43,410 nt of DNA from Perkinsus olseni. Taxonomy: Eukaryota. Position 1 is the stretch's first letter; each line of letters starts with the position of its first letter. The notes under the pieces were generated by a model. It worked only from the letters and a program-made list of their open reading frames with translations, was not told the DNA's origin and did not search any database. The DNA lies in the NCBI GenBank assembly GCA_013115125.1, contig JABANN010000044.1:62001-105410 (forward strand), written 5' to 3'. Shown here piece by piece: positions 1,790 to 16,800 of this stretch. The translations under genes were made by a program, and so were the position numbers.

Positions 1790-4700
1790 CTAATTGAAAT
1801 CCCCGAGTGATTTCCCAGCCCGAAGCTCCATCGTGCCGGGTTTAAACAGCATCTTCATTTCCTCCAAAGTCAAGCTTCGACCTTCGTCCTTCTGCAGGGC
1901 GGCCGCGTCGCTTGCGTCGAAGGCCATATTAGTGAGCCGACTCTTGCCAGCTTGAAGACTCATGATTCGCTGGTCGATAGAGTCGCGTACGACGAAGCGA
2001 TAGATCCTGACGGTGTGTTGCTGGCCCAGCCGATGCACTCTCATCATGGCCTGCTCCTCCACAGCCGGGTTCCACCAAAGGTCGAGCAGGTAGAGGGTCC
2101 GACCGGCGGTGAGGTTGAGGCCGACACCGCCAGCTCGTAAAGATACCAGCAACACTTTCCCTTGTGTCGCGCTGTCCCCCTCATCCTCTGGCTCCGATAC
2201 CTCAACATCATCACAGGCGTCCAGATGGTTAGGCAACACCGGGGCGAAGTCCTTCTGGGGGCTCCTGTGGTAGAACCATGCCACGTTGTTCTGCCGTTCA
2301 TTCTGATTCTGCTTGCCCGTGATGAGCCTGTAAGGGACTTGGTTGACGTCAAGCATGTGCGATATCATCCACAAGTAGGAAGTCCATTGAGAGAACACCA
2401 CCACGTTCCACCCACGACGAACGTCCCTCTTCACATACCGCAACAACTTCATCATCTTCGAACTCAAACGGAATTTGTATTCCACCCCTCGCTCCTCCTC
2501 GTTGGTGGCCTGCTCATCGTCCGACTGCGTAACAGCATTGACCATCGCCTGCGTTGGTATGACCTGCAGGGACTCCACCGAGACCGGGGCCCGGCATACA
2601 GGACAAGAGCCGGCCCGCTTGATGCAAGCATTGGCGCATGGCTGACACATCGTGTGACCACACACCGTCAGGACAGGTTGCTTCTTCGCGTTATCGCTGG
2701 TGAGAGCTTCCAGACAGATGACGCATTCCGGCAAGGACTCGGATATTTTCAAGTCATCTATGACCTTCTTCAGGTAGTCCTTCCGGTGAGGAGACGTATC
2801 CTTCGGGCCACCCATGAGTCGATCATAGAGCTCGTCAAGATTCTCCGCCATACCGGAATCATCTTCCGGGCGAGCGCTATTATCTTCATCATCTACCGGC
2901 ACTTTGCCCATGACCTGTCCAGAGAAAAGAGTTTAGATGCGGAGACGAAGCGATAACATAAATAGAGCACTAGATTGATGCATTGAGACCTTCTTCTCTG
3001 ATGACGTGTTACCGTCCCAAGAGCATCATCAACCTCCGCGGCTGAGGCCTCACCTTGGCGAGTCTCGGTGGTAGACAGAGTATCGGGTGGCAGAGGGCCT
3101 GGCGGAGCCTCAGGATAAGGTTGAGTATCTATCAGTTACATGACTACTGAACGACTGCTGCCCACCTTCATCCTGTGTAGAGTCTCCGAGCGTTCGATGA
3201 AGCTGTTGAATTCGAGGTGACTCCGCCAGAAAAGATGGGTATAAATCTCCTCTTCCTCAGCGGCAAGAGGAATCTCCAGGGTGTGTACCAACTGACACAC
3301 AGAAGATAGTTTCTCTTTTTCCGATTCCAAAATTGATGGCTAGAGGTGCCAGAAAACACGCTCGTGAAGTGCCATCGGTGGTCCAACCTTGTCCGGCATC
3401 TGCACTAATGGTTGTCCATTAGAATCTTTGGTCTCCTTAGTTCTCCTAATCATTATGCGAGATAGCATGTTGTGCAACGCCGCGCGGCCGGCTTGATCTC
3501 CCTCCTTCACGGGGTCAACTATATGCCTCTTGAAGAAGGCGAACGACGACCACGGCTCGACGTGGAGGAACTGATGAGGAAAAGACATTGCCTTCTTAAT
3601 ACGTACCACGGGTGGAGGCTAGCCATCGGAATTCCCTCAACGCGGGACTTCACCAGGACAGTGAACAGTTCCTACCTGTATTATCGGGAAGAGGTCTTCT
3701 AGAGTGTTCTGTACAGGAGTGCCTGCAGGCAACAGCTAACCCAAGCATATCGAAAAGTGAGCTCACCCGACAAGCACCAGAGACGATCTCCATGCAGGCA
3801 CGTCCGCACTACTCGCGATATCGCCGTTACCCGGGACTTGATCAGATGACACTCATCTAGTACTACACGTCGCCATCGAATGTGCTGAGTGATGGACGAT
3901 ATACCAAGAGGGCAGGCACGTCGCGGAAGGGACTGCTTACTTTCATGATGTCGGGCCCATCACGGGTAACTACTCCGTAGGTGGTCATCACCAGGCCGGC
4001 CCTGTCCGCGGCTGCAACGAGCTCCTCGGGACTTCGCACTCTCTCGTTGCCGTAATACTGGAAGGGTTTACCTGTAGATTATCAATGGCCATCGAAAAAG
4101 AACTCCCAAAGTGCTCACATACATTAAAATGCAGTCAAAACGAGGACTAAAGAGGAGTAAGAACTCGAGAGACATAAGAATAGAGACATTCTGCATAGTA
4201 CACGAGAAAGCTACGAGATATCGTCAGGCTGACGGCGTCAGCATTAGCATGTCAGTTTCGCCAGGGAAACAGGCAATTCTCATGTAGTTGTGGGTATCAG
4301 CCTGCCACCAGCATTAGTCCCCACCCGATCCAAAATAGGGCCCTGGGTTGACCAGGGTGTAGTCAACATCGATACTGCTAGTGCGGTGTAATGCAAAGTG
4401 GACGGGAGCCGCGGCATCGCCTCGAGCCGTGCATATCCGGTATGATCGATTAGAATACCGAATTCAGTCTGCAGCCTTGTAGACCGCAGTTCCTGCACCT
4501 AACTACTGTCGCTGAGCAATTTCGACCCACCTCTCTGTGCTTCCTTCCCAGCGAGTGCAAGCCTCTGTTGCTTTGCTGTGGATTCACGCTGGGCAATTGC
4601 CGGTGATGTGTCCGGGATTGGTGCATTGGTAGCAGATGCTCTTGCCCGAAGGCTCGCTCACACGGTTCGAGGCGGTGTTTCATTAGTTCATCGACCTTTT

Positions 4701-9121: not shown

Positions 9122-9172
9122 CTCTCACTTCTGTGTAGGCACCAGGCCCTGGTGCCTACACAGAAGTGAGAG
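9122..9172. repeat. Perfect 25-bp inverted repeat with 1-nt spacer
   Basis: CTCTCACTTCTGTGTAGGCACCAGG-C-CCTGGTGCCTACACAGAAGTGAGAG. Confidence 0.97.
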
Positions 9173-9720: not shown

Positions 9721-11274
9721 TTATTTCACTGGTTGATACGTATAAAACCTCAATAAAAGCACAGATACAACGAACAAAGCGATGCATCCGCTCAGCCACA
9801 GAAACGCCTCATCTAGCGGCCCGCCTAGCTGGCATGGGTACAGTGGATGGTCGAGAAGTCGAGAGCCACATATCGTGTTCGTTAAGGCACTGTACGCAGC
9901 GAAGCACATGGCGAAAGTGATACGAAGGCACCATCGTCCAGACCCATTAGGCTCCCAACTAGTAGCAAGCTTGTGTCCTACGAGTAACATGGAGGGCGCA
10001 CGGAGAGCCATCATCATGTGTGGAATGATCGAAGAGCGGAAGGTCCATAGCCTTGCGAGCACATGACTGGGCACAGAGTAATGGGGAGGACTACTTGACG
10101 GAGTCCCGGGTAAACAACTAGCATTGCTGAACCCAGGCACCACCGTGGGTTGCAAAGGGATCAAAGGCATAATATGACGGCCAATATTGAGCATAGAATA
10201 TAGAGTAGTTGCAACAGCTAGAATTGTATAGGGTGCGCATATGAGTCGAAGAGACGACCTGCAGAACAACCAGCTTGGGATCTGATCCTCGCTGCCTTCA
10301 CCTAACCATAGGCCTCTCACGACTTCCGCGAATCTTGCTTCCGAGCCGTACATGCCAGTGATGCGCTGCTTCAGGGTGTTGTGGTCCGCTGATGATGAGC
10401 ACTTTGATCGGCGAACGCTGAAGCTCTTGACTCCGGAACAAGACTTCTGCCAGTCCTCACCGCAACGGAAGGCTCCCAGCCCTATCGAGAAAGCTGATGC
10501 CAGCCCTAAGGCATACCCGGACAACATGTTTAGCTCGTCACTATCGAAGATACACCTCTCCAGGCGCTGAGTGAGAATACCCAACCACTGCAAGAGCATC
10601 AGCGATACGCAGAGCTTGAGGTGGTTCATGTTAACCAAGATAACATCTTCCTTCTTGTGAGTCCGCAGGAAGACGGCCAACTCGTAGACACACCAGAGGC
10701 GATCGAGGTAATCAGGAGACCAGAGTATCAATAACTTGTTCGATACATGAAGATAGTCTGCTAGCCTGGATATACCATAGGACTTGGCAATGGGGTCATT
10801 CTGTGGTATACAACATTTATCGAGAAATACCATCGTGTTACGATGCTTATATAACGGGATAATGATAAGAGCGAGTAGGAATGATACAAAACCGAAGAGG
10901 AGCACAATTATTTCGAAACGCAGTTGACAAAGCTCTGCGGAGCAGAACAGGTAGGCTCCCAATAGAGAAGATATCAACATCACCGCGTAAGTCGCTGGAC
11001 TACCGCAACAGATGAAGAGAGATATCTGTTTCCAAAAGCCACCCGTTGCCCACGAATGGCTCAAGAAAATGTCGATCGACTTGACCGGAGCCGATGCAGC
11101 GTGTGCATTGACGTGACTCTCGGCATTACGAAGGAAGGATGCATCTCGCAAGATAGTGGATAAGGGACAACCTTGTAGGCGAGCATCAATCAATCCCACC
11201 CGGGAACTCGACGACGATGGCCTTCGACCGTCGATAGCGGAACGCGTAGACATTTGTGAGCCAATATCCAGCAT
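9721..11274 (-). CDS. Intronless multi-pass membrane protein with a split TIR-like domain
   Basis: Single long ORF, open to 11406, first ATG at 11274. TIR-type motifs DIFLSHSW, VFLDKCCIPQ and LLILWSPDYLDRLWCVYELAVF. Two hydrophobic helices lie between the first two motifs, with several more C-terminal. Confidence 0.78.
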   Translation of the reverse strand: MLDIGSQMSTRSAIDGRRPSSSSSRVGLIDARLQGCPLSTILRDASFLRNAESHVNAHAASAPVKSIDIFLSHSWATGGFWKQISLFICCGSPATYAVMLISSLLGAYLFCSAELCQLRFEIIVLLFGFVSFLLALIIIPLYKHRNTMVFLDKCCIPQNDPIAKSYGISRLADYLHVSNKLLILWSPDYLDRLWCVYELAVFLRTHKKEDVILVNMNHLKLCVSLMLLQWLGILTQRLERCIFDSDELNMLSGYALGLASAFSIGLGAFRCGEDWQKSCSGVKSFSVRRSKCSSSADHNTLKQRITGMYGSEARFAEVVRGLWLGEGSEDQIPSWLFCRSSLRLICAPYTILAVATTLYSMLNIGRHIMPLIPLQPTVVPGFSNASCLPGTPSSSPPHYSVPSHVLARLWTFRSSIIPHMMMALRAPSMLLVGHKLATSWEPNGSGRWCLRITFAMCFAAYSALTNTICGSRLLDHPLYPCQLGGPLDEAFLWLSGCIALFVVSVLLLRFYTYQPVK

Positions 11275-13463
11275 GGGCCTGAGAACATGAATTGGACCCC
11301 AGTACGGTAAAATTGCTCCCGGGTGGGGTGGGGCCACCCTACCCGGCTCCAGTGAACTCCTTCCATCTTTACATGGAATGGACCCTCCCGGAGCAGTCGT
11401 CTCCAAGCGTGTTACGAAGAAGGCGGTCCGCTCGGGCTTGCACGCAAGTGCAAAGGACGTCGGTCAGCTTTCGATCTTCAACAGAACAGTCCGCACACGA
11501 ATCGTGTCAAAAAACTCGTAAGTATAAACTGTAACGGCGGACCTAGCTGCCACTACAGTATGATGAGGTCTTGAGCTCATAATGAAGGCCGACCTACGAG
11601 AAAACTCCCTCGGAGCAATACTGGAGTGGTGGGATGGTGGGGACGCGGCGCTAGCGTCTCCGGGACAGCCTGTGACAGGAGTTACTGGTCCCATCAATCA
11701 CTTCCCCAAAGGCAAGCAAGATCAGGATATAGCGATCGCAAATATAGAGTTACTCTGTTCGAGAATAGCCGGGCGAGAAAGGAGCCCACAACCGTGACTC
11801 GGGTGAGCAGCACAACCCACAGCTCGAAACTCGGGTGGACGCTAGCACATACATAGCCACAGGCCAGAAGCGTCCCCAGCCTGGTAGAATATGGGTTTAC
11901 CAAAAGAATGCAGCAGGTAGAGTGAAGTGACATCGCCAGAAGCTCCAGCCTAGAGAGCACTGATGTAATCACCTGTGCCAAGACTCCTGGCACTGTCAGT
12001 GACGGAATGTCAATACCACTGGAGCCCCACTCGGTGTCACCGAGCCTGTGAGCCCCACTGCCGTTACTATTGCGGCACTTCGGTAGTCCGAGGGTAACAG
12101 CATCGACCTGTACTCAACCTCCGCCCAATGAACGAGAGAGTTTCAAATGATTCCATCGACTCAATAACTATAGGATTCATCGTCGCAGTTCCCTCTGAGA
12201 TTTCCATATCACTACTGAGACGTTCCTAGTGTCAGTGCCCCGTCTCGCGATATGCCCGTATCGTGTTTGCCTCTCTGGTCGTGTGGTTCCACTCGAGTCG
12301 ATCCAGATGTTTGTGTTAGATTCCAAGTTCGGGACGGCGTCCCTGGGACGCAGCTGAATCAGATTTTGCACGGCTTTTCTTCATCAGGTTTCCTGAATCA
12401 GAACTTCGAGGTAGCACGGGCGGTGACTCAGGCAACATTTGCTAAAGACGAGAGTGTTCCGGGATGGCGCAGTCTCCAGCACTGAGGCGGATAGCGGCGA
12501 GAGCATCCTTCGGCGGCGAAGTGCATCGGAGTACTCCCAAGCACTTCCCATGCCACCTAAACTTCGAAGGGAACCAAGAACTGCATCTTCGACTGCTGCA
12601 AGACGACGGACCGTCCCAGTACTGCTGCCCTGAACTTGGCTCAGTGGACTCCCAAGAAGACCACCACCTCCTCATTTTGACTTTCACCCGTAGTCCATTG
12701 CGCGTCGAGAAAGCGAATGATACAGAATATCCGTGATTCCCGCGTCGTTCACGCCGGTCCTCCTATATAGGATTGCTACCACGTTCGTTAACTAAGTGAG
12801 CCCAAACTTCACTCACGTATATGGAACGCTTCGCGGGGCGCGAGGCTCACGCTGACGCTAGGGCCACAGCGTCTTGCCCAGTACCGTCGACGATACTATG
12901 GGCAGCTTCGCTTCGTCGTCTGGCTCCAACAATCGTGTATAAGACGGTATTACCGAAGAAGCTTTGCCCCCTGACTAGCCTATACTCAGACGAGGCACTA
13001 CTTCGATGTGGTCCCGTTAAGCAAGCCCCGAGCTTAGAACCACCTGCCAGCTTAAATCACTTCAGACCATCAGCCAGTCGGGCAACGCACAAGATGAATT
13101 GGCAGGGACCACAGAACACGAGCCTCGAGACTCGAGATTGCCGTCCCAAAGACAGAATCGCTCAACCTCGTAGTTCGAACTACCGTAGCTCAGATTGAAC
13201 GGTCGCAACACGGAACAGCATCCGCCGAGTGAGGGCCGCCATCAGAGTCTAGGGAGGAACCCGACTGCCCAGCCTCTCATATCGGATAGTTTGTCTGAGG
13301 CCGGGGCGCTACTGGGAGGTGTCTAAGCCATCTCCGAACAAACGGGGGAAGCTTTCGATAGCCTACAGACACGCCAAGTCACTTACTTAGACCTCCTCTC
13401 CCGGCACGTTGATTGAAGCAGTGAACTCAACACAGTCCATCTGCTCAGGGACGCAACAGGCTT

Positions 13464-13761
13464 CTATCGTACCAGAGAGCCAACGGCAAGAATGGTACCC
13501 ATAAATAGCGCACTCGGGCCAGCGTACTTCATACAGCCTCTCAACGTACCCGTCTGCACAGCATAACCAGCGATACCCGCCGAGGCACCGATGAGACCTG
13601 ATACGAAGCGAAGTGAGCCATCGCCTCCACAGTCCATCAATATGACCTCCCTGCATGAACATCATTCCCATCTGTCGCGCGTAGAAGCCAACCTTGCTCG
13701 GTTGGTGTACTTGATACTGCTGCTGCTGCTGCTGCTGCTGCTGGTGATGCGAGAAGCTCAT
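13464..13761 (-). CDS. ROMO1: ROMO1/Mgr2 mitochondrial inner-membrane TIM23-associated protein (2 exons, 82 aa)
   Basis: Exons 13761-13647 and 13597-13464 with a 49-nt GT-AG intron give MSFSHH(Q)nYQVHQPSKVGFYARQMGMMFMQGGLIGASAGIAGYAVQTGTLRGCMKYAGPSALFMGTILAVGSLVR*. The Gly-rich TM and the C-terminal 'FMGTILAVGSLVR' match the Romo1/Mgr2 pattern. Confidence 0.82.
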
Positions 13762-13894: not shown

Positions 13895-16800
13895 CTAGTC
13901 TGCAAACGTCCCCCTCACAGCCATCTCCTTGGCAATGACTTCGTTCAACAGGGCCCTAGCATCGGAACCCCTCTCGGAGGTATCATCGACCTTCCTGCGG
14001 GGCATGACTAGAGCTCTCCCGACGTCCTCGTCCATACACCAACACTCAGCCAAAGCTCCCTTAGCAGACCCCGGATCAGACAGCAGTACTGCATTCACCA
14101 TCCTGCTCAGCCTTCCGAGGTCGCAATACTCACTATAAGCCTGTCTATCGTGGCATACCCCGCCACAGGGGTCCTCATCCGACCTCCAGCCGAGCAGGAC
14201 CTCTTCCACCTCTCTCGCCCTCTGATTGGCAGAATCTATCCGTGTGGCCACCTGAAGCAGCTCAACCTCGCATTGCTGGTCATTGACGGTGACCCCAACT
14301 TGAAGGGGGGTCAATTTGATGCTGTGCAGCGTCGCCGGATCCAGAATATCCTTCTCAGTGCGGACACCGTCATTCTCCTCCCGCCTTACCCCCACCGCAG
14401 CCCCTCTAGGGACTACGTCAAGAAAGGCACATGAGTTCAAGGGTGGCTGTAGGGTATCGAATCTGGTGAGAGTTGTGGATGGGTACGCTTGCTCGAATGA
14501 AGACTCCGTCTCTTCAACCTTCTCGCAGCCTTCATCACTATCCTCGGCAGCAAGACCAAACCATGAGGGAATACGTTCTGGTAGGACCTGGGCGAAGGAC
14601 CGACTGGCTGCCATCTTGAAGGCTCGAAGAGGATCAGTCCACCAATCCGTACGGCTGTCCATAGGGTCATCCCCTAGAGGTTTGTGATGTACAAAAGCAT
14701 CGACATCACAGTCGGTCTGCCACGGCCGAGGCAAGGCCCTGATGGGCGAGTAAAGGCCGAGGAAGAGGTTCACAGCGTGCTGCTTCTCCTGGTCCGAAAC
14801 ACTATTAGCGTAATGGCGATGGAGGGAGATGAGCAGCTCCCTGCTAGGGGCCGATAAGGCAACCCAATCCGTGTCACCACTCCCACGCGGCATCACCCGT
14901 CTATGACCACCCAGGGAACCGGAGGCGCTGGCATGCCCCTCAAGAGACTGTCCAGCGGCCATAATGTTAGCGTACTTCTTATGGGCCTCACTACCAGCGT
15001 ACTGCCATGCCAACTGATCCCCCATCTCTTCATACATCCTCGTGAGTTCTCTCATCATCATCAGTGGTGGCGGCTCCCCGGCCTCTGGGACACCTATCAA
15101 GCCTTGCTCCCTCAGCTGGGAGCATAGGGCTGCGCAGCCAATATGATACTGAAAGACGTTGGTTCGATCCAGGCAGTCCACACAGCTCGACCGCGCCACG
15201 CCACTTTGATATCTTTTGACCTCACCATTAGCATGAATGTGAAGCCAACCCGTAGAGAGGGCCAGCCACTCGGACAGGATACCCAAATGGTCCACCAAAT
15301 TCTGGCCGCCCCTCCGCAACCTAGCCTGAGCCACCAGATGCTTACTATAGGCCTTCAGATCGAAGACAACGTAGCGGATCTTGACCGCTGAGGGCAGGTC
15401 GGCGTTCAGAGCATTGACCATCTTCTGATAATGTGACCCGAGCAAAAACTCTTGTTCGTTCTCTACCGTGGACAACGACCTTTGTCCTTCTTCCGACGGC
15501 TTCTCCTCCTCCTCTTCTTGTACTTCACCCTCTGCATGGCGCATCAAATTTACCACCAAAACCGGTGCGCCATACCGTCCCAACAGCCCCGAGAAATGCC
15601 GCCTCGACGCCGTGTTGTTCCTGTCTGTTCTCTGGAACCGAATCGGTGGTTTCGGCTTCACCAGACTCAGCTGACTCTGGTCTTGCATCCAGAATACCGG
15701 AGCGCTGCCTCGAACCTGGACGAAGCTGGAGAAGGGCTGACGACCCATCCCACCAGTGGACAGGTCGATGAGTATCTGCTCTGTCTCCACCTCATTGGCA
15801 GCATCACCGTCGGTGTTGATGCCGCGCTTTCTATACCGAGTCCCCGCGTAGAAGCGAGACCGTCGGCTGATGAGAATGATGCTGAGCACTCGGGAGAGGG
15901 CCGATATTTCGCGCGCCGCGAAATACCCGTAGATAATCGGCACATACCATTGCCGTACTCGTTGGTCAGGGTGATCACGAAGACCTTCGCTGTGCGTCCA
16001 GTTCCACACAAAACGGGACAGCGAAGATTCCGCTAAGTTGCTTTGCGCACTTTGAGAGATATCGTATGTATGGCAGTAGTAGTAGCCCCTAGAAGCCTGC
16101 ATGTCCTGTATCAAATCGATGAGGCGACGCTCGTCCTTGGCGAGCTGGCGTTGGTGTAAGATGGACCCGCCGCTCCCGGACGTACCACTGCCAACCACCG
16201 CCGCGGCCGACTGTTGTTGCTGCTGCTGCTGCTGGTCAGAGCTGCTGGCTGCCTTGAGCGGCAATAAGACCGTTTTTTCCGTACTCCATACCTAGGGGAG
16301 GATACCAACATTGAGCCATTGCCTCTAGTAGCGGAGATGATATTGAAGGGGAGCTCTATACGACCAGTCCACGACATTCACGACTATAACGAACGGAAAC
16401 CGGAGAGTTAAATGGTTGACAGATTCGTAAAGGTACACTGCGGAACAAATTCTTAGGAAATCACGGCTTAGCGCGGGCAGTAAAATCGCTCATTTCAGCC
16501 ATGAAGAACAATTTAAATTCTGAATCACTCTAAGCACTTCGCGGCAATCGAGAAAGCACCTAAAAACTAAACTGGTCCAGAAACATCAGGTATGGGGCTC
16601 TGGAAGGACAAAATGGTCGAAAAACCCGATTTTCTGAGAATTCGTTGCGCAGTGTATGTTAGGTTCTTTGGGAACTCTAGTTCTAAAGCCTAGGATTTTT
16701 GCTGAGTTGAAACTGCCTTTCAAACTAGGTGTTTGGTTCGCACCTAGAACAGACAGGTTCCCAAAACTCGGTGAGTCAACGAGTCCCAAAATTTTTTCAT

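Follow-up and report, generated by a model that had tools for sequence, protein, structure and literature searches.

In bacteria, plants and animals alike, TIR domains play a central part in immunity and cell death. To our knowledge, every well-studied TIR domain is a soluble module in one unbroken piece that oligomerisation switches on; activation of soluble TIRs involves oligomerisation and movement of the BB loop. TIR enzymes have their pocket for nicotinamide adenine dinucleotide (NAD+) where strands A, B and C end C-terminally and at the first turns of helix alphaC. The Glu of the W-x-x-x-E motif is catalytic in SARM1, AbTir, SPARTA and the plant TIR NAD+-cleaving enzymes (NADases). Animal receptor TIRs are classically adaptors. 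NADase TIRs tethered to membranes, and algal TIR enzymes that depend on the Glu, have precedents in PMC13142454 and in the preprint 10.64898/2026.04.20.719644. The former argues that the membrane part of Dictyostelium TirC restrains toxicity and that the output is NAD+ depletion and death; the latter has a Chlamydomonas TIR that makes a cyclic ADP-ribose (cADPR) isomer, 3'cADPR, in a clade said to include dinoflagellates and haptophytes. Algal TIR proteins (haptophyte genes) with several membrane helices, TIR stretches of 76–128 amino acids (aa) and a conserved Glu are described in PMC12489294. The gene considered here lies in a 43,410-nucleotide (nt) stretch of Perkinsus olseni (contig JABANN010000044.1, positions 62,001 to 105,410; hereafter the window, from whose first letter all positions are counted). 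It represents a widespread, unstudied TIR design of perkinsids and dinoflagellates. According to the structural model, the TIR domain is very probably formed from residues ~67–75, 148–215 and 285–324 and woven through the membrane.

The protein has about eight predicted membrane helices, with which the TIR domain would be interleaved. Elements of the AlphaFold2 (AF2) model are strand 67–73, short helix 79–89, helices 93–111 and 117–143, strand 148–150, helix 167–177, strand 178–185, helix 193–205 (bearing W194 and E198), strand 211–215, helices 216–243 and 246–283, a short strand near residue 291, and helices 295–309, 312–324, 339–363, 404–439, 446–468 and 486–510. An earlier note, made from the DNA letters, had listed a betaA-like motif, two hydrophobic helices, VFLDK, a motif with the catalytic Glu and further transmembrane segments. 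The betaA motif is IDIFLSHSW, and the two helices follow it (residues 93–111 and 117–143, the latter with the top Kyte-Doolittle score of the window, 3.02). VFLDKCC occupies residues 149–155 and SPDYLDRLWCVYEL residues 186–199, the codon of Glu198 falling exactly where it had been placed (Table 1). More hydrophobic helices are indeed present further on; those of residues 216–268, which the earlier note had counted among the further transmembrane segments, belong, in the model, to a second hairpin within the TIR fold.

Table 1. Features of the TIR gene and of its product (residue numbers refer to the 517-aa protein).
Feature	Position in the window	Strand	Details
Coding sequence	9721..11274	-	One exon, 517 aa plus stop (9721–9723), ATG start
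betaA, IDIFLSHSW (residues 67–75)	11050..11076	-	Model strand 67–73
First hydrophobic hairpin, alphaA position (residues 93–141)	10852..10998	-	Model helices 93–111 and 117–143; hydropathy
TIR core: betaB, BB loop, alphaB, betaC, alphaC, betaD (residues 148–215)	10630..10833	-	Pfam below cut-off, phmmer, model
Glu198 codon, W194-C-V-Y-E198, position of the TIR catalytic Glu	10681..10683	-	Conservation; aligns with WCKYEL (TLR2) and WSIFEL (IL1RAPL2)
Second hydrophobic hairpin, alphaD position (residues 216–268)	10471..10629	-	Model helices 216–243 and 246–283; family hydropathy
Third TIR piece, short strand and two helices (residues 285–324)	10303..10422	-	Motif F285..C292....D297.......I305....G310....F315
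Four more hydrophobic helices, less conserved (residues 339–508)	9751..10260	-	Model, hydropathy; loop 364–403 poorly predicted
5'-leader intron, 64 nt	11278..11341	-	GT..AG on the minus strand; cut may shift by 1 nt

AF2 reaches a predicted local distance difference test score (pLDDT) of 80.9 and a predicted template modelling score (pTM) of 0.81 for the whole protein (31 sequences), and 92.7 and 0.86 for residues 60–335 alone (the core model, 130 sequences). One TIR fold is built in the prediction from three segments parted by two hydrophobic hairpins; the expectation of a TIR fold assembled across a membrane insert is thereby borne out at the level of a model. Compared with 48,161 representative chains (VIA-align), the core model has TIRs in all top seven rows: SpbK (Z 8.2), IL-18Rbeta (7.8), SARM1 (7.6), RPP1, MyD88 and RPS4/RRS1 (each 7.5) and TIR-1 (7.3), with root-mean-square deviations (rmsd) of 3.3–3.7. 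In these rows 113–127 residues are aligned over model range 3–7 to 266–276, and both hairpins are therefore spanned by the matches. Of the 50 rows listed for each model, TIRs account for 15 with the core model and 19 with the whole model. After re-alignment of the Foldseek candidates, TIR entries fill 50 of 50 rows (Z 6.9–8.9, 100–141 residues aligned, 11 chains with Z ≥ 8). AbTir with 3AD leads (Z 8.9, rmsd 3.0, 110 of 134 residues aligned) ahead of SARM1 (Z 8.8, rmsd 2.8, 110 of 139), followed by MapSPARTA and RUN1 (both 8.4); identity to TIR NADase structures is 14–18%. Structural alignments to TIRs reach core-model residues 264–276, which are residues 323–335 of the protein. Among the Foldseek rows listed for the core model the first 16 are all TIR (probability 0.75–1.00, E 0.03–0.4); for the whole model E is 0.3–1.5.

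The fold spans residues 67–324 (~258 aa) and is not one contiguous domain of 130–170 residues. This non-contiguity is a feature of the variant and no argument against homology with TIRs. Hairpin 1 would take the site of alphaA and hairpin 2 that of alphaD, residues 285–324 would complete the fold, and four membrane helices would follow. The second helix of each hairpin would return from the membrane and continue into the domain at the alphaA or alphaD position. Whole-model alignments extend as far as residue 517, and the model has a short strand close to residue 513; the C-terminal tail may pack onto the TIR domain. A two-copy prediction (residues 31–517) scores 0.00 and bears neither way on self-association.

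TIR identity by sequence was judged by Pfam clan STIR (PF01582, PF13676, PF08937). Pfam matches of the window protein at E ≤ 10 are to three TIR families only and are confined to residues 161–218; the ADP-ribosyl cyclase/CD38 profile is not matched at this threshold. Among the 31 members of the first family alignment, TIR_2 is matched by 23 and TIR by 16 at E ≤ 0.01 (best 8.6e-8). Among 84 diverse members at E ≤ 1, TIR_2 is matched by 68, TIR by 48, HET by 5, ThsB_TIR by 3 and every other family by at most 2. Precomputed Pfam TIR matches exist for relatives P0010, P0016 and P0026–P0028. In a phmmer search of core residues 144–217 (74 aa) against all PDB sequences at E ≤ 10, 10 of 11 matches are TIR, the best being IL1RAPL2 (E 0.0045), followed by TLR15, TLR2 and IL1RAPL1. 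The betaA motif, the BB loop (box 2; F-L-D-K-C-C-I-x-Q-x-D) and the W-x-x-x-E motif of alphaC (here W-C-x-x-E) are all present and can be aligned position by position to TLR2 and IL1RAPL2; K-C-C-I-P-Q-N-D...W-C-V-Y-E-L pairs with K-L-C-L-H-K-R-D...W-C-K-Y-E-L of TLR2. No single score is strong; what carries the TIR assignment is that sequence and fold, as independent lines of evidence, point to one and the same family. Profile matches in the PDB to NuoJ, sensory rhodopsin and EAAT3 (E 0.011–1.7) were rejected as due to hydrophobic composition; those to NuoJ and sensory rhodopsin (E 0.011–0.03) are located in the hydrophobic C-terminal part.

Both interruptions are a hallmark of the whole family, as judged from 181 proteins (the window protein plus 180 members) aligned to the family profile in 186 stretches. 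Each insertion is found in every row that spans it. The segment W75–F150 measures 56–119 aa (median 89) in all 155 spanning rows and contains two hydrophobic segments in 118 of them, one in 32 and three in 5 (19-residue Kyte-Doolittle window, threshold 1.5 unless stated). The segment from residue 215 to F285, present in 172 rows, measures 62–101 aa (median 72); it contains two hydrophobic segments in 113 of these rows, or in 140 at threshold 1.2. Family-averaged hydropathy has eight peaks, at ~90–110, 120–140, 216–238, 250–266, 340–360, 410–432, 450–468 and 490–508. The four C-terminal helices are less well conserved, with an occupancy of only 25–110 of 186 rows; the loop of residues 364–403 among them contains an N-A-S site. 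The three TIR pieces are two helices apart and the C-terminus comes after four more; if all eight span, the pieces and both termini lie on the same side. The earlier note's demand that the halves share one membrane face thus agrees with the count, each TIR piece standing between even numbers of hydrophobic helices. Density of Lys plus Arg is 33/260 (0.127) on the TIR side and 5/85 (0.059) on the other. By the positive-inside rule, a crude test, the TIR pieces most likely face the cytosol.

The residues expected of a pocket are nearly invariant. Of 177 family rows, 176 keep E198, whose retention the earlier note had claimed, and 175 keep W194. D152 is kept in 176/176, Q158 in 175/176, C155 in 170/176, I156 in 169/176, F70 in 154/154, S72 in 153/154, H73 and W75 each in 154/156, F285 in 170/176, C292 in 158/176 and D297 in 165/173. 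The motifs F-L-S-H-S-W, F-L-D-K-C-C-I-x-Q-x-D and W-C-x-x-E are kept in 96–100% of rows, and all core invariant residues are retained in the window protein. Strands A, B and C have the invariant residues at or just past their C-terminal ends, and the others lie in the first turns of alphaC; in TIR enzymes this is the place of the pocket. Such near-invariance among representatives that share at most 50% identity points to a pocket under selection, beyond a mere docking surface.

The protein is read as an integral-membrane TIR enzyme that acts on NAD(P)+ at the cytosolic face and is controlled by its membrane helices, a proposal given somewhat better than even chances. Its enzymatic part, Glu198-dependent NAD(P)+ chemistry, is drawn from fold and conservation and leans only slightly towards acceptance. 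At the cytosolic surface of the membrane, Glu198 would serve to cleave or cyclise NAD(P)+, yielding ADP-ribose, cADPR-type products or NAD+ depletion. Because the two flanking domain helices extend membrane helices, rearrangement of the bundle could gate the pocket; a change of the bundle caused by a ligand, lipid, tension or partner protein could open or close it. The output would be either defence or cell death through NAD+ depletion, or second-messenger and Ca2+ signalling.

Several observations weigh against this proposal. Pfam scores of the window protein stay below the cut-offs (TIR_2 17.7 bits, cut-off 28; TIR 15.8, cut-off 21.3; ThsB_TIR 13.9, cut-off 21.2) and the matched stretch is short (residues 169–217 or 161–218); the interruptions leave a linear profile only ~50–70 contiguous residues. 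The core is nearest in sequence to animal receptor TIRs (IL1RAPL2, TLR2, TLR15). Foldseek against the PDB gives no match at E ≤ 1e-3 for the whole or the core model, and Z values of 7–9, which cover all TIR matches, are middling on the scale of the search tool. Pocket geometry, membrane placement and the replacement of alphaA and alphaD are deduced from element order and alignment ranges, and transmembrane status from hydropathy and AF2 helices; helices 93–111 and 216–233 are only moderately hydrophobic. Residue 34 (11173–11175) is Gln in the window copy and Arg in at least 90% of relatives. It lies within the N-terminal motif L-R-G-x-x-L, and overlying contigs show no other letter. Among the sequencing runs whose contigs overlie the gene, X1 and X2 are RNA runs by guess.

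Unlikely is a non-catalytic TIR receptor or adaptor whose bundle senses and whose TIR surface recruits TIR proteins, as in Toll/IL-1 receptors. The best sequence matches of the core, IL1RAPL2 first, would suit it, as would the multi-copy state of the family, frequent among receptor families (at least 13 FOZ60 and 11 FOL47 locus tags), and the matching of Pfam TIR (PF01582) by 48 of 84 members, a model that is mostly animal according to PMC13142454. Near-invariant Glu198, Trp194, D152 and Q158 fit a pocket better than a docking surface, however, and in structure the nearest chains belong to active NADases (AbTir with 3AD, SARM1, SPARTA). In 10.64898/2026.04.20.719644, animal receptor TIRs are reported to be catalytic too; likeness to them is therefore no argument against catalysis.

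Very unlikely is a HET-like module for cell death or self/non-self recognition that kills from within a membrane upon allorecognition or infection. HET domains have a long insertion between their first two motifs, and their motifs are presumably similar to F-L-S-H-S-W, F-L-D-K-C-C-I-x-Q-x-D and R-L-W-C-x-x-E. Outside the TIR families, PF06985 alone is matched by over three members (5 of 84, with E 0.04 at best), and the family is expanded and tandem. PMC10197012 describes HET as a remote TIR homologue that suffices for cell death. Against these points, the window protein has no HET match even at E ≤ 10, and TIR_2 is matched by 68 of 84 members as against 5 for HET. The explanation also overlaps with the membrane TIR enzyme favoured here, and HET itself may be an NAD-processing relative of TIR.

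A transporter or other membrane enzyme with Rossmann-like cytosolic loops, such as a nucleoside 2-deoxyribosyltransferase, would make the TIR likeness convergent or too remote for a prediction of function; this is regarded as highly improbable. For the whole model, VIA-align ranks gamma-secretase APH-1, a helical membrane protein, first (Z 8.8, 197 residues aligned, rmsd 6.2), followed by ABCG and LptFG (Z 6.6–7.0); nucleoside 2-deoxyribosyltransferases occur at Z 6.2–6.8, and every Z is middling. Helical bundles need Z ~13 to mean more than generic likeness, and the APH-1, ABCG, LptFG and GPCR-like rows were rejected on this ground. The sequence evidence, which does not depend on the fold, is TIR only, and no transporter family is matched by more than 2 of 84 members.

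The gene is transcribed and most likely has a spliced leader intron. The joint 11277->11342 is found in one contig each of runs X1 and X2, and the unspliced form is also found in X1. A 64-bp deletion allele with GT..AG ends by chance is less likely than an intron. Exact-match contigs occur in X12, a declared RNA-Seq library, with 13 of 30 bins covered. Overlying contigs of X1, X2 and X12 have no internal joint in the coding sequence. After splicing of the leader, an in-frame stop stands 30 nt ahead of the start codon, and no ATG further upstream is in frame; two out-of-frame ATGs lie within the last 40 nt ahead of the splice site. The spliced X2 contig extends at least 459 nt 5' of the intron (11342–11800, minus strand) and is either a long leader or derived from a precursor. 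X1 contig depth is ~10 times higher over the conserved TIR core (10615–10890), and contigs of all three runs diverge from the window at 10890 with identical 30 letters; this looks like a paralogue sharing the core and collapsed onto it.

The stop-to-stop frame has 580 codons, is the second longest in the window and far exceeds chance length. Several statements of the earlier note about the locus need amending. Its description of the gene as intronless applies to the coding sequence and fails for the leader. The gene end had been put at 11406 because the frame is open upstream to 11463; this end lies 5' of the ATG at 11274, in non-coding sequence where the frame is merely open. Nor is this the only long open frame: 13895..16291 (minus strand) is open for 798 codons. 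No degenerate island is apparent: one family copy is present, no further copies or fragments were found elsewhere in the window, repeats are not meaningful and GC content dips only slightly (0.50 at the gene, 0.51–0.54 otherwise). Spread by retroposition is unsupported: the leader holds an intron, paralogues have adjacent locus tags, no poly(A) tract was found 3' of the stop and no target-site duplication flanks the gene, where direct repeats are short and at chance level. A decaying retrocopy or annotation artefact without a function of its own deserves almost no credence: the exact protein is absent from the collection searched, the nearest named relative aligns at 89% identity over 62% of the query, a near-invariant Arg is replaced by Gln and the coding sequence lacks introns, but the frame of 517 codons is intact, every core invariant residue is kept, exact RNA-Seq contigs exist, the leader intron is spliced in two runs, and neither poly(A) nor target-site duplication is present.

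The 798-codon frame lies upstream on the same strand. Over residues 1–257 it matches the SacI homology domain (Syja_N, profile positions 32–271 of 305, E 2.3e-59), as in a phosphoinositide-phosphatase-type gene; it begins mid-domain, and earlier exons must therefore exist. A short CTG/CAG trinucleotide run (13712–13747) is close to the end of this frame. Another open frame (1790–2932, minus strand) contains a RING finger and Helicase_C, the architecture of the SNF2/RAD5 type. A perfect palindrome with two 25-nt arms and a 1-nt spacer is present at 9122–9172, ~550 nt downstream of the TIR gene stop.

Perkinsus olseni and P. chesapeaki supply all of the nearest proteins (at best 89% identity, across 62% of the query); then follow unnamed marine records and the dinoflagellates Polarella, Crypthecodinium, Durusdinium and Prorocentrum. 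Most named relatives are annotated as "hypothetical" or, by UniRef, as "TIR domain-containing protein". The profile of the 31-member alignment, searched against 1.84 billion cluster representatives (50% identity), matches 4769 at E ≤ 1e-3, 2816 at E ≤ 1e-10 and 1255 at E ≤ 1e-30. The last figure is the conservative family size; the looser end of the list may hold ordinary TIRs or hydrophobic noise. In the ESM Atlas the nearest clusters (0.97–0.98) are eukaryotic with Haptophyta as the commonest label, which serves as a lead only. A second protein search with the family profile yielded more Perkinsus paralogues and no new taxa. The locus-tag counts given above, each taken within a single assembly, come from named Perkinsus records and are lower bounds, as the clusters merge copies more than 90% identical. 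Adjacent tags (FOZ60_000178/000179, FOL47_002563/002564, FOL47_010494/010495) point to tandem duplication. Perkinsus models P0011, P0012, P0014, P0018 and P0026 start exactly at the Met of M-V-F-L-D-K and omit betaA along with the first hairpin. As gene models they are probably truncated, and such starts hide the architecture in public records. Other Pfam domains occur in P0021 (mRNA-capping enzyme beta subunit, PF02940, Perkinsus olseni) and P0043 (ubiquitin, PF00240), which may be real fusions or merged gene models. In the literature searched, no description was found of a membrane-interrupted TIR or of such TIRs from Perkinsus or dinoflagellates, and, in line with the earlier note, no functional characterisation; supplements of the surveys PMC13142454, PMC12489294 and 10.64898/2026.04.20.719644 may list members.

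Named members belong to a genus of oyster and clam parasites and to ecologically dominant dinoflagellates. Domain helices continuous with membrane helices at alphaA and alphaD would offer a different route to control TIR chemistry. If the enzyme activity is real, the family would open a way into the study of NAD-derived signalling or cell death among perkinsids and dinoflagellates and would be a natural test case for the tolerance of the TIR fold to interruption. Quite unlikely, yet of wide consequence if true, is a further step: that the family is the molecularly unidentified membrane-bound ADP-ribosyl cyclase of these groups, with a pocket gated by the helix bundle. A membrane cue (mechanical stress, lipid or ligand) would then lead to cADPR-type messengers and feed cADPR–Ca2+ signalling, which is described for dinoflagellates in PMC9959387. 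Sensor and enzyme would be one polypeptide, and intramembrane coupling would be a mode of TIR control not known elsewhere.

Compared with known systems, only a functional analogy is possible with CD38/ADP-ribosyl cyclase, a membrane-bound maker of cADPR from NAD+ whose fold is unrelated. Fungal HET domains are often fused to NLR parts and are soluble, whereas the window protein is of membrane type and without a HET match. Remote kinship of HET (PF06985) with TIR and its expanded, variable gene families, as presented in PMC10197012, are likenesses. In the haptophyte TIR proteins, the helices are described in PMC12489294 as preceding the TIR, while the TIR of the window protein is split; some of these genes may belong to the present family, as compared by description and ESM Atlas label. 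Dictyostelium TirC resembles the proposed enzyme in being a membrane-held eukaryotic NADase TIR, and differs, according to PMC13142454, in its single predicted N-terminal helix and its intact TIR of recent bacterial origin; the present family is interleaved and old in perkinsids and dinoflagellates. The TIRs of Toll-like and IL-1 receptors (TLR2, TLR15, IL1RAPL1/2) are closest in core sequence and are, as proposed here, cytosolic parts of membrane proteins. In them a single membrane helix precedes an intact TIR, and there is a large ectodomain; the window protein has no ectodomain and carries helices inside the TIR. NADase TIRs (SARM1, AbTir, SPARTA TIR-APAZ, plant RUN1/RPP1) have the same fold and W-x-x-x-E on alphaC with a near-invariant Glu. 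They are contiguous, soluble and of 130–170 aa, whereas the window protein is cut twice by hairpins of ~50–90 aa and has four extra membrane helices.

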